This document shows, piece after piece, positions 18,605 to 22,159 of a DNA stretch of 64,000 nt (position 1 is its first letter; each line of letters starts with the position of its first letter). Under the pieces are notes generated by a model. The model searched no databases and had not been told where the DNA came from. It saw nothing but the letters and a program-made list of their open reading frames with translations. The stretch spans positions 247,405 through 311,404 of the forward strand of contig JACRLI010000014.1 in the NCBI GenBank assembly GCA_016235265.1, read 5' to 3'. A program made the position numbers and the translations under genes. The DNA is from Candidatus Eiseniibacteriota bacterium (GTDB taxonomy: Bacteria > Eisenbacteria > RBG-16-71-46 > JACRLI01).

Positions 18605-21600
18605 TTAGACTGCCCCCTTCGATGGTCCATCGGTGAACTTCCCGGCCCCGGCGAAACGCGTCCGGATGTACTCATCGGCGCTGCCTGCCACGAGCTTCAC
18701 CGTGCCCGGCCCGCTCCTCACAAAGAAGTCGCCGTCCTTGCTCGATTCCATTCCACTCCACTTCAGGAATACCGGCTCGGGGCTCCGCTGGCAGGTGGCC
18801 ACGCACACGGTCTTGCCCTGCACCATCTGGGTCTTCGTATCGATGCAGGTCCCGGCCCGATCGCCGAGGCCGTTGCGGACTGCCAGCGCGAGGTGCCGCA
18901 TGAACTTGTCGTCGCTCTCGAGCCGGTCCTTCTCGATCCCAACGATGGATCCGTCATCGGCGACGCCGATCAAGAGGTCGCCACCTTCGGTGTTCAGGAA
19001 CGCGGCGATGGTCTTCAGCACGGCGTGGGTCACAGCCGTGTCGTCCTGCCGGTCTTCCTGGAGGTTCCAGCGGAGCGTGGATTTGAAGTCGAGCGTCTTC
19101 GACCCACCGCGCTTGATCAGCTCCTCGGCGTTACGGTGGGCGCGCAGGTACTGGTCGAAGAGGAAGTTCTTGACGGTCTCGCCGAAGGCGCGGTCGTCGG
19201 TGATGCGCTTGTAGAGATCGAAGTTCGAGTCGACGATCTCCTGGATCACGTGCTCGACCTTCTGATCGAAAGTCAGCCGCACGTTTTCGCGGGTGTTGGC
19301 GCGCGCGGCGGCGTCGAGCGCCGCGTCGTCGTCGAGCTTTGCCATCATCTGCCCGAGAGTGACGCGATGCTCGGGGCCGAGGTTCAGACCGAAGCGCTCG
19401 TTCAACTCGGCGATAATGCGGGAGAGCGTCTCCAGCTCCTCCGGCGTGGTGCCGTGGCCCTGCTTGGTGCTCACGGGTTCGAGCACGCCGGGCCTGCGCT
19501 CAAGCGCGATCTTGCCGCTGCCGGTCTGCTGGATCCGGTACGACTCCATGTCGATGTTCTGCTGCACCTCACGGGGCAGCTCAGCGCGATCGGCGGGCAG
19601 GAGGCGCCGCAGGTGCCGCGCGAAGACGTAGAGCTTCTCCAGGTCGGCGTCGGCAAAGGTCAGGACCTGGGCCAGAAACGCGTAGAGCCGCACGTAGTCG
19701 GTGAGCTGACCGCGGAGGTCATGTCGCTCCTCCTCGGAGAGCGCCCCAAAGCGCTCGACTACGGGCGCGAGCACCGAATAGAGCCGGTCCTGTGTCGCCT
19801 TGGGGTCGAAGTAGACCTTGGCGAAGGCCTTCACATCGGCCTCGGTGTAGACCGGGAAGGCACCGAGTCGCGTCTGAATCTCGTATAGGAGGTTCGGGTC
19901 GGTCGCCTCCGAGAGCAGCGTGGTCTCGTAGTAGGGCTCGAACGCGGTCTTGATCTCGTCCGACTCGTTGGCGAAGTCGAGGACCATCGTGCCCTTCTTC
20001 TCGGGAGGCAGCGTGCGGTTGAGGCGCGAGAGTGTCTGTACGGCGTTCACGCCACCGAGCTTCTTATCCACATACATCGTATGCAGCAGCGGTTGGTCGA
20101 ACCCGGTCTGGAACTTGTTGGCCACGATCAGGAACCGGTGCTCGGGTTGCTCGAATGTCTTCGCCGTCTGCGCCTCCGGAAAGCCATTCATGCCTGATTC
20201 AGTGTATGACCGCCCGCCGTCCTGCACGGTGCCCGAGAACGCTACCAGGGCCTTGAACGGGTACCCGCGCTCGGCCAGGTACTTGTCCGCCGCCAGTCTG
20301 TAACGCACTGCATGCAGTCGAGAGCGGGTGACGATCATCGCCTTCGCCCTGCCACCGATCTCGCCCTGCACCTGGGTGGCGAAGTGCTCGACGCAGATCC
20401 TGACTTTCTCGCCGATCGCGTGCGGGTGCAGCTCGACGAACGACTTGAGCAGGTACTCGGCCTTCTTCTTGTCGTAGCGCGGGTCGTCCTCGACCTTCTT
20501 CAGCAGCCGCCAGTACGCCTTGTAGGTCGAATAGTTCGCCAGCACGTCGAGGATGAATCCCTCCTCGATCGCCTGGCGCATGCTGTAGAGGTGGAAGGGC
20601 GCGAACTTTCCGTCGGGGCGCTTCGTGCCGAATAGTTCAAGCGTCTTCGGTTTCGGCGTGGCCGTGAAGGCGAAGGTCGAGAGGTTGGGAAGCCGCCCGC
20701 GCTTCTCCATCTCGGCCAGGATCGCGCTCTCCAGCTCCTCCTCGGGCGTCGCCGCCTCCGCCTCTTCCATCTCCGCCTCTTCGAGCGAGCCCGAGCTGAG
20801 CACGGCCTTGAGGCTCTTCGTGCTCTCGCCCGACTGCGAGGAGTGCGCCTCGTCGACGATCAGGGCGAAGCGCTTGCCCGGCAGCTCGCCAATCTCCTTC
20901 GCGATCACGGGGAACTTCTGGAGCGTGGTGACGATGATCGTCTTCCCCGACTCAAGCGCGTCCTTGAGCTGGCGCGAGGTCGTGTCGATGTTTTCGACCA
21001 CGCCGAGCGTCTGCTCGAACTGGCGCATCGTAGTCTGGAGCTGGCGGTCGAGCACGCGCCGGTCGGTGATGACCACGATCGAGTCGAAGACGCGTCGGTC
21101 GCCCGCGTCGTGCAGCGTCGCGAGCTGATGGGCGAGCCAGGCAATGGTGAAACTCTTGCCGCTGCCGGCCGAGTGCTGGATCAGGTAACGTCGCCCGGCA
21201 CCCAGAGCGCGTGCATCGGTCACGAGCTTGCGTACGCAGTCAAGCTGCTGGTAGCGCGGGAAGATCAGGAAGTGCCGGCCGGTCTTGCGCCCCTTCTCGT
21301 CCTCTTCCTCGACCTCGTGGATGAACTGGCGCACGAGGTCGAGCACGCTGTCGCGCGACCAGGTCTCCTCCCAGAGATAGGCGGTCGCATAGCCGCTCCG
21401 GGTGGGAGGCACGGGCGGGTTGCCAGCGCCGCCGAACTTGCCCTGGTTGAAGGGCAGGAAGCGCGTCCTCGGTCCGGCGAGCCGGGTCGTGACGTAGACC
21501 AGGTCGGGATCCACCGCGAAGTGCGCGAGACAGCGGCCGTAGGCGAGCAGCGGCTCGCGCGGATCGCGATCGGTCTTGTACTGGCGGATCGCGTCCTCGA

Positions 21601-22159
21601 CGTCCTGGCTGTTGAGGGGGTTCTTGAGCTCGGCGGTGAAGATCGGGATGCCGTTCAGGAACAGCACCAGATCGAGGCTGTTCTCGTTCTTCGTACTGTA
21701 GTGGACCTGGCGCACCACGGCGAAGAGGTTCGCAGCGTGCAGCCGCCGGGTCTCCTCGTTGAGCGCGCTCGCGGGACGGAAGTAGGCGAGGCGGAACTTG
21801 CAGCCCGAATCCTTGAGGCCGTTGCGCAGGACGTCGAGCGCCCCGCGGCGCTCGATCTCGGCGGCGAGGCGCTTCAAGAACTGCTCCCGGGCGGCCGCGC
21901 CGTGGTGCTGCTCGAGCTTCTTCCACTCCTTGGGTTGCGTGGCTAGGACGAAGTCCAGCACGTCGCGTGGCAGGAGGCAGAGCGTGCGGTCGTAGTGCTC
22001 CGGCTTGCGCTTGCGGTAGCCGCCCGGCGGTCTGTCACCAAATGGCGGCGGCGTCTCGCGCACGGCGGTAGTTTCCCCCGAGCATGCGTCCGGGCCGTGC
22101 TGGAGCAGGGCGCACTCAATCGCCTCCTCGAAGGAGCGTTCGGAGATCTCGGGGATCAT
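18605..22159 (-). CDS. hsdR: type I restriction endonuclease subunit R (HsdR) with a C-terminal AlbA_2/Schlafen-like domain fusion
   Basis: N-terminal HsdR nuclease domain; SF2 helicase motifs ([26 protein letters not shown]). The C-terminal 130 aa (TLDFKSTL...[32 protein letters not shown]) match the AlbA_2 (PF04326-like) signature. Confidence 0.88.
   Translation of the reverse strand: [1184 protein letters not shown]

Follow-up and report, generated by a model that had tools for sequence, protein, structure and literature searches.

Prokaryotic Schlafen proteins are phage-activated, manganese-dependent tRNA-cleaving ribonuclease (tRNase) effectors that carry an Ex4(E/D)xK active site and are fused to a partner that serves as the sensor; mutation of the motif leads to loss of defence, and the prokaryotic Schlafen studied elicited no SOS response and showed no action on DNA (10.1101/2025.07.24.666596 / PMC13056530). 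When fused to prokaryotic Argonaute (SLFN-pAgo), the single-lobe SLFN domains pair into a mimic of the two-lobed mammalian enzyme and cleave tRNA once the target is recognised, and a "Schlatpase" (Schlafen-GHKL ATPase) fused to the type I specificity subunit HsdS was reported from Poribacteria (bioRxiv 10.64898/2026.05.29.728809). Schlafen ribonucleases (RNases) have also been catalogued as backup (suicidal) effectors in bacteriophage exclusion (BREX) loci (PMC12839542), and PMC1484252 describes the anticodon nuclease PrrC as latent on the type Ic enzyme EcoprrI and switched on by a phage inhibitor of EcoprrI. Here we analyse an hsdR gene whose product, the motor-nuclease subunit of a complete type I restriction-modification (R-M) system, ends in a Schlafen/AlbA_2 domain. 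The gene (hsdR-SLFN) lies at 18605..22159 (-) of a 64,000-nucleotide stretch of Candidatus Eiseniibacteriota DNA (assembly GCA_016235265.1, contig JACRLI010000014.1, positions 247,405 to 311,404), hereafter the window, to which coordinates refer unless another locus is named.

Both parts of this protein are already known, and so is the pairing of a Schlafen RNase with methylation-based DNA defence. Searches of 7.7 million PMC papers and of bioRxiv turned up no account of HsdR fused to Schlafen; HsdR is not mentioned in the main text of the prokaryotic Schlafen (pSlfn) paper (PMC13056530), and the part of its Supplementary Table 2 that was available lists no composition with PDDEXK, ResIII or helicase, which does not prove their absence from the table. 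Any Pfam scan would show the architecture, and databases contain it in abundance under names taken from one half or the other. What is specific to this locus, as read from its sequence, is a degenerate Schlafen active site.

HsdR ends in a Schlafen/AlbA_2 domain

The open reading frame begins with ATG and encodes 1184 amino acids (aa), a 100% match to an NCBI protein from a metagenome-assembled genome (MAG) of Candidatus Eisenbacteria that is annotated as "putative DNA binding domain-containing protein". Pfam, structure prediction and Foldseek place the Schlafen/AlbA_2 domain at residues ~1015-1170 (18650..19117, (-)), behind the normal HsdR C-terminus. The match to PF04326 (SLFN_AlbA_2) spans residues 1020-1155 (18695-19102) with E=7e-17, scores 62.4 bits where the gathering score is 25.3, covers profile positions 2-116 of 118, and reaches E=3e-18 when the isolated tail is searched. 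Direct sequence search of the tail against PDB gave weak matches, of which the top ones were all Schlafens (SLFN13, SLFN5, SLFN11, SLFN12). An AlphaFold2 model of residues 1000-1184, built on a 69-sequence alignment, has a predicted local distance difference test score (pLDDT) of 92.9 and a predicted template modelling score (pTM) of 0.88; a single-sequence AlphaFold model of residues 904-1184 was dropped at pLDDT 42.7. In a Foldseek search of the tail model against PDB, 30/30 best matches had the Schlafen/SAMD9/AlbA_2 fold, with E down to 5e-7, among them the bacterial AlbA_2 protein DIP2311, SLFN13, a RecG-related N-domain and the SAMD9 DNA-binding/tRNase domain, as well as SLFN11, SLFN14, SLFN5 and SLFN12. 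The Schlafen box and the glycine/hydrophobic core stretch are present at residues 1051-1070, and D1068 in GVADD (18956..18958, (-)), which stands at the third acidic position of the site, is retained in the window copy and is an aspartate in 179 of 181 aligned family members.

A preliminary description of the window, made from its letters, had already proposed an AlbA_2/Schlafen domain at the C-terminus of a complete HsdR, and profile, confident structural model and fold search all agree with it; the AlbA_2-signature peptides that it quoted lie at residues 1023-1029 and 1050-1081. It had named the usual DUF3387-type tail in advance as the finding that would speak against a Schlafen domain, and the Pfam scan of the HsdR protein returned no match to DUF3387/T1RH-like_C. 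Its extent for the domain, the last 130 residues, was too short, as the Schlafen domain measures ~155 residues and is followed by a 14-residue end.

The rest of the protein is an HsdR subunit. The N-terminal PD-(D/E)xK nuclease domain (residues 142-229; 21473..21736, (-); Pfam HSDR_N 8e-18) has D163, E177 and K179 of the D...ExK site in place. The superfamily 2 (SF2) translocase motor (residues 301-745; 19925..21259, (-)) is covered by Pfam SWI2_SNF2, ResIII and DEAD at 301-541 (SWI2_SNF2 2e-26) and by T1R_D3-like at 673-730, and it carries Walker A GSGKS (332-336), DEAH (436-439), TATP (499-502) and QTLSRLNR (708-715). It is followed by a C-terminal helical region (residues 746-1010; 19130..19924, (-)) that had no Pfam match and is also found in orthologues that lack the tail. 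EcoR124I HsdR is the best PDB sequence match to the body, and PADLOC labels the product REase_I (1e-34). The NCBIfam model TIGR00348 (hsdR) aligns to residues 142-745 with 210.4 bits, below its cut-off of 284.55, and the protein therefore belongs to a divergent HsdR subfamily. Taken as sequence, the body looks complete and intact, and restriction activity is predicted.

Distribution and history of the fusion

The preliminary description had suggested looking for the same fusion among HsdR homologues, and it recurs widely, in more than 120 protein clusters and in many phyla. The best 120 protein clusters from a 5.8-billion-protein collection are 86-92% identical to the window protein and all carry PF04326 together with HsdR domains; their source names include Planctomycetes, Rokubacteria, Thermoanaerobaculia, Alphaproteobacteria and Vicinamibacterales. 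Among 600 pattern matches listed in species-representative genomes, at least 540 encode relatives, and the best 80 loci come from more than a dozen phyla, most of them with a full tail on translation. The source of the window sequence is a metagenome-assembled genome, where an assembly error, an overlooked stop codon or a shifted frame might join neighbouring genes. However, the frame is uninterrupted in the 120 clusters and in most of the best 80 loci, from independent assemblies that include complete chromosomes and the genome of an isolate, Cyanobium sp. Morenito 9A2 (L024), the sole isolate represented in those 80 loci. More than 170 independent contigs have the fused frame, which refutes an artefact, and we regard its probability as negligible.

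Twelve orthologues with 62-77% identity stop at query residue ~1004-1013 and have no tail (loci L055, L056, L062, L069, L070, L072, L073, L075-L078 and L080). Their clean ends mark the tail as a discrete module joined on behind residue ~1010. Neighbour joining of the HsdR bodies separates a tail-less outgroup clade from a large one whose complete members all carry the tail, and it also shows a nested tail-less Chloroflexota group, which looks like tail loss. A single gain of the tail was considered and found too simple: a more distant HsdR (P0192; 47% identical overall, 1329 aa) has the tail and an extra S24 peptidase domain, while HsdRs of 62-66% identity lack the tail. Loss (or gain) of the tail must therefore have happened repeatedly. 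The plasmid search (PLSDB) returned only tail-less HsdR relatives of <50% identity and no plasmid carrier. An apparent extension of a Corynebacterium atypicum protein to residue 1055 was spurious, the HsdR there being 1008 aa long.

The same Schlafen clade (41-51% identical) was found in proteins such as P0192, P0211, P0218 and P0166, as the C-terminal domain of the HsdR with the S24 peptidase, of a Mokosh MkoB-like phospholipase D (PLD) protein, of a TPR protein and of many ~420-aa proteins whose ~260-aa N-terminal region has no family match. Its presence on varied defence proteins fits a portable effector module. The ~420-aa proteins were considered as split HsdR-SLFN proteins in R-M operons and rejected, their N-termini being unrelated to the HsdR helical region; of three whose contexts were inspected, two had no R-M genes nearby and one stood behind a 44-aa HsdR remnant, with no consistent link.

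Conservation of the catalytic motif

Across the 181 HsdR-SLFN members, the consensus of the active-site motif is E-SKTL-E-F-K. The first glutamate of Ex4(E/D)xK is kept in 178/181 members, the second in 179, the lysine in 180 and the downstream aspartate (D1068 of the window copy, in GV(A)DD) in 179, and no variation is seen across the family in the Schlafen box (AAFLN) or in the GG..IGV stretch (F, N, GG, G). Since the four active-site residues are retained in at least 98% of the members, catalysis is favoured over binding alone. The preliminary description had taken AlbA_2 for a nucleic-acid-binding sensor, a view that has to give way to published prokaryotic Schlafens being tRNase effectors and to a motif kept in 178-180 of the 181 HsdR-fused proteins. 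It had further suggested an extra recognition or regulatory layer on restriction; the idea of an added layer stands, whereas the sensor or regulatory role is at odds with the evidence so far.

That role can be put in its strongest form as a non-catalytic module that binds or senses RNA, single-stranded DNA (ssDNA) or DNA structures and thereby tunes restriction. DNA-binding forms do exist within the fold, the SAMD9 DNA-binding domain (DBD) with DNA and SLFN5 being among the Foldseek matches; NCBI names such proteins "putative DNA binding" or "RNA-binding domain-containing"; and the window copy, which has lost the first catalytic glutamate and yet has a ratio of nonsynonymous to synonymous substitution rates (omega) of ~0.28, would fit a retained non-catalytic role in its own genome. 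However, binding alone would not need the conservation of all four active-site residues, the experimentally studied prokaryotic Schlafens are effectors whose fused partner does the sensing, and tail-less orthologues as well as classical HsdRs such as those of EcoKI and EcoR124I function without such a module. For the family as a whole, we therefore consider a sensing module unlikely.

The conserved motif and the tether to a DNA translocase could also be read as a second DNA nuclease or processing domain that helps HsdR by acting on ssDNA or DNA ends, and the titles of PDB entries 7cux and 7ksp indicate that some Schlafen N-domains bind or cut DNA besides RNA. Against this, HsdR already has an intact PD-(D/E)xK DNA nuclease, the studied prokaryotic Schlafen neither induced SOS nor acted on DNA and, to our knowledge, all characterised active Schlafens target tRNA or rRNA, which makes a DNase role improbable. 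Slightly less probable still is a tail that works mainly as an assembly or dimerisation handle coupling two HsdR subunits or complexes, its nuclease-like motif being structural. The SLFN domains of the pAgo fusion pair within a dimer, and type I enzymes have two HsdR subunits and cleave on collision, which would suit a handle, but charged catalytic residues are seldom conserved for structure alone, and the nested Chloroflexota clade has lost the tail cleanly from an otherwise unchanged operon.

The degenerate tail of the window copy

Aligned with the family consensus, the motif of the window copy is degenerate and reads G1019-SKTL-D1024-F-K1026 (19082..19105, (-)), with GGG as codon 1019 and GAC as codon 1024; it is the only one of the 181 sequences altered at both glutamate positions (E1019G, E1024D). 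Deviations were counted at those columns that at least 95% of the 176 tail-bearing members share. The HsdR body of the window copy deviates at 1 of 531 such columns (rank 162 of 176, among the least deviant), whereas its Schlafen tail deviates at 6 of 77 (E1019G, E1024D, Q1092L, P1108T, V1121A and K1135S; rank 3 of 176), a difference with p=2e-5 in Fisher's exact test. Other sequences with heavily deviant tails are, unlike the window copy, also among the most divergent in the body.

A codon-level comparison of the window copy with ten close relatives gave a similar picture. The ratio of tail to body nonsynonymous divergence (dN) is 1.85 for pairs that contain the window copy, against 0.92 +/- 0.21 for the other pairs. 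By a rough three-point estimate for the terminal branch of the window copy, its tail dN of 0.057 exceeds that of the other ten sequences and goes with omega ~0.28, and its body has dN 0.015 with omega ~0.07. Single mutants of the first glutamate, SLFN11 E209A and SLFN14 E211A, are what we take to be the standard nuclease-dead forms, both being so titled among the PDB matches, and by this comparison the tail of the window copy probably has an inactive or strongly altered nuclease, next to a restriction motor under tight constraint. With its first catalytic glutamate lost, the domain may be left with a role outside catalysis, be it in binding, structure or regulation. A decaying pseudodomain is partly supported: changes at conserved sites are in excess, yet omega lies at ~0.28 and not at ~1.

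Two other decayed tails were observed among the related loci. In locus L029 (Xanthobacteraceae; 12971-13170 of that locus) the Schlafen domain is cut off after ...THAVL, and in locus L074 (11996-14212) it is split by an insertion of ~1.65 kb.

Operon and genomic island

The hsdR-SLFN gene is the last of an operon read from the (-) strand. Its start overlaps the stop of hsdS in ATGA (22159-22156), and the hsdS gene (22156..23517, (-); Pfam Methylase_S, PADLOC Specificity_I 8e-111), which encodes two target-recognition domains, has an ATGA overlap at both ends. Further upstream lie a DUF3644 gene, which is also the PADLOC candidate PDC-S19, in the slot between abiEii and hsdS (23514..24593, (-)), the nucleotidyltransferase toxin gene abiEii (24590..25522, (-); Pfam AbiEii 4e-39, PADLOC 2e-94), the antitoxin/regulator gene abiEi (25519..26226, (-)) and hsdM (26233..28359, (-)), which encodes an N6-adenine methyltransferase of 708 aa (Pfam N6_Mtase 2e-55 and HsdM_N; PADLOC MTase_I 5e-268). 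The DUF3644 and abiEi genes were assigned by family scan and PADLOC. ATGA start/stop overlaps occur at four successive junctions from abiEi through hsdR, which indicates a single translationally coupled unit. The type I operon thus encloses the AbiE pair and the DUF3644/PDC-S19 gene (23514-26226), with hsdM on one side of them and hsdS on the other.

Homology to AbiEi begins at about residue 44-52 of its open reading frame, and the true abiEi start may therefore be downstream of the first ATG. A perfect 15-nt inverted repeat at 26190-26233 (ACACAAGATGTCGGC / GCCGACATCTTGTGT, with a 14-nt spacer) covers both the stop of hsdM and the nominal start of abiEi and could be an AbiEi operator or a terminator. 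Within hsdS (22253-22968, (-)), direct repeats of 63-65 nt form two pairs, one 92% and the other 78% identical, with copies ~645 nt apart, and mark conserved regions beside both target-recognition domains, the usual substrate for domain shuffling. Directly upstream of hsdM, a 280-aa CAP12/Pycsar-type TIR-like gene was found (28480-29322, (-); Pfam PF10137 2e-33, PADLOC candidate PDC-S35 7e-74), with no cyclic-oligonucleotide-based antiphage signalling (CBASS) or Pycsar partner visible.

The gene order is shared by relatives. Among 60 related loci with at least 7 kb of upstream sequence, hsdM was found in 56 and hsdS in 53, and abiEi/abiEii stood between them in 47, giving the conserved order hsdM-abiEi-abiEii-[slot]-hsdS-[slot]-hsdR; AbiE is absent from the tail-less outgroup. 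The variable slots between abiEii and hsdS and between hsdS and hsdR hold other conflict genes in related loci, namely Fic/DOC (2/6 of the slot genes scanned), GmrSD, an M78/IrrE peptidase with a helix-turn-helix (HTH), a predicted pPIWI-associated nuclease and a Ser/Thr kinase (slot genes examined: L013 6457-7741, L027 6739-8643, L024 8356-10001, L055 5898-7097 and L061 6770-8604). Across related loci, HsdR and HsdM are 70-93% identical and HsdS just 32-61%. Between MAGs of different phyla (loci L001-L068, from Gammaproteobacteria, Thermodesulfobacteriota, Acidobacteriota, Gemmatimonadota, Planctomycetota and Eisenbacteria), HsdR and HsdM are 84-93% identical, with HsdS again at 32-61%. High identity of HsdR and HsdM against low identity of HsdS suggests, at the level of sequence, very recent transfer between phyla combined with swapping of specificity.

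The GC content is 0.63-0.65 over 18-30 kb, against 0.70-0.73 in the flanks. The border genes, judged by eye from their translations, are housekeeping-like, one with a biotinyl-domain-like C-terminus and one yajC-like, and no tRNA gene, integrase or flanking direct repeats were found at the island borders.

Proposed function

We propose that the tail across the family is a latent RNase, probably a tRNase, borne by the restriction complex. The restriction arm would attack unmethylated incoming DNA, and the Schlafen tail would shut down translation, as in abortive infection, when an anti-restriction factor blocks the complex or, alternatively, when the complex is engaged on foreign DNA or reaches a certain translocation state. 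As prokaryotic Schlafen domains appear to need pairing for an active bilobed nuclease and an R2M2S1 complex carries two tails, activation could plausibly come from two tails pairing, either inside a single complex or across complexes that have collided. For the window genome, the tail would probably be catalytically dead or weakened and the restriction enzyme apparently intact. We give a probability of roughly one half to the reading that an HsdR with a single-lobe Schlafen nuclease domain is a type I enzyme carrying a latent RNase, a covalent arrangement resembling that of PrrC and EcoprrI. RNase or tRNase activity, latency, trigger and the need for dimerisation are all inferred here from described systems.

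Several points weigh against this reading. The substrate of the tail (tRNA, other RNA or DNA), its latency and its trigger rest on analogy, and some Schlafen/AlbA_2 domains bind DNA or are without nuclease activity (the SAMD9 DBD-DNA structure, SLFN5 and SLFN12 are among the fold matches). The tail shares no sequence relation with PrrC, and the operon already has the AbiE toxin-antitoxin pair, next to which a second abortive module may seem redundant. As to the window copy itself, omega of 0.28 indicates that some purifying selection is left on its tail and that it is not in simple decay; since the tail is not neutral, a residual non-catalytic role is possible. Moreover, the codon of G1019 is one base from GAG, and a consensus error is possible at that position in a metagenome-assembled genome, although with six deviations in the tail a lone error at G1019 would not be the whole story.

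More tentatively, the family may be described as a large, horizontally spreading type I clade with a competent Schlafen tRNase on the R subunit, a one-polypeptide equivalent of PrrC/EcoprrI. If true, a complex that senses unmethylated DNA, or that is hit by anti-restriction proteins, would directly trigger translation shutdown, and individual lineages such as that of the window would be turning off the toxic arm. The covalent union would then show how a second, abortive defence layer is hard-wired to the primary one, and it would give tractable material for finding out which signal from a DNA-tracking motor turns on a Schlafen nuclease, the same question that arises for human SLFN11. Since many soil and sediment bacteria carry the family and the R and M subunits are so similar (84-93%) across phyla, it is also a clear case of recent spread of a composite cassette between phyla. 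The window copy, in which the motor is conserved and the Schlafen site degraded, might serve as a natural experiment on the cost of the toxic arm.

Comparison with known systems

The family shares with prokaryotic Schlafens (RorSlfn5, DUF262-Slfn, CRISPR-associated Cash, SLFN-pAgo) the PF04326 domain, the fold and, at family level, the Ex4(E/D)xK motif, the Schlafen box and GG..GV.D. As in these proteins, a single-lobe domain sits on a larger protein able to supply an activating signal, and the genes are located in defence islands. In contrast, the domain of common pSlfn proteins is N-terminal and followed by a GHKL/His-kinase-like ATPase, HTH or Ig-like domain, whereas the HsdR tail is C-terminal on a complete R subunit, has no GHKL ATPase and is known from sequence; in addition, the window copy lacks the first catalytic glutamate.

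The likeness to PrrC/EcoprrI, and to RloC, lies in an RNA-targeting effector, putative in our case, that is physically coupled to a type I enzyme, here covalently. PrrC differs in being a separate, non-covalently bound protein with an ABC-ATPase N-domain and a HEPN-type nuclease, whose gene lies within the hsd operon, while the HsdR tail has the unrelated Schlafen fold; Pfam, NCBIfam and PADLOC returned no match to the PrrC domains in HsdR or in the operon, and the resemblance is limited to proposed function and overall architecture. The Schlatpase-HsdS of Poribacteria likewise joins a Schlafen to a type I subunit, but it does so on the specificity subunit and together with a GHKL ATPase, whereas the window fusion is on the R subunit and its sole ATPase is the HsdR motor. 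The BREX-associated Schlafen RNases share the idea of a backup effector beside methylation-based DNA defence; they are separate genes with His-kinase-like and winged HTH (wHTH) domains, while the Schlafen domain described here is fused to the primary effector of the R-M system. Finally, with canonical HsdR (EcoR124I, EcoKI) the window protein has in common the PD-(D/E)xK nuclease, the SF2 motor, the helical C-terminal region and the company of hsdM and hsdS, but it is ~170 residues longer at the C-terminus and its operon encloses AbiE and other defence genes.

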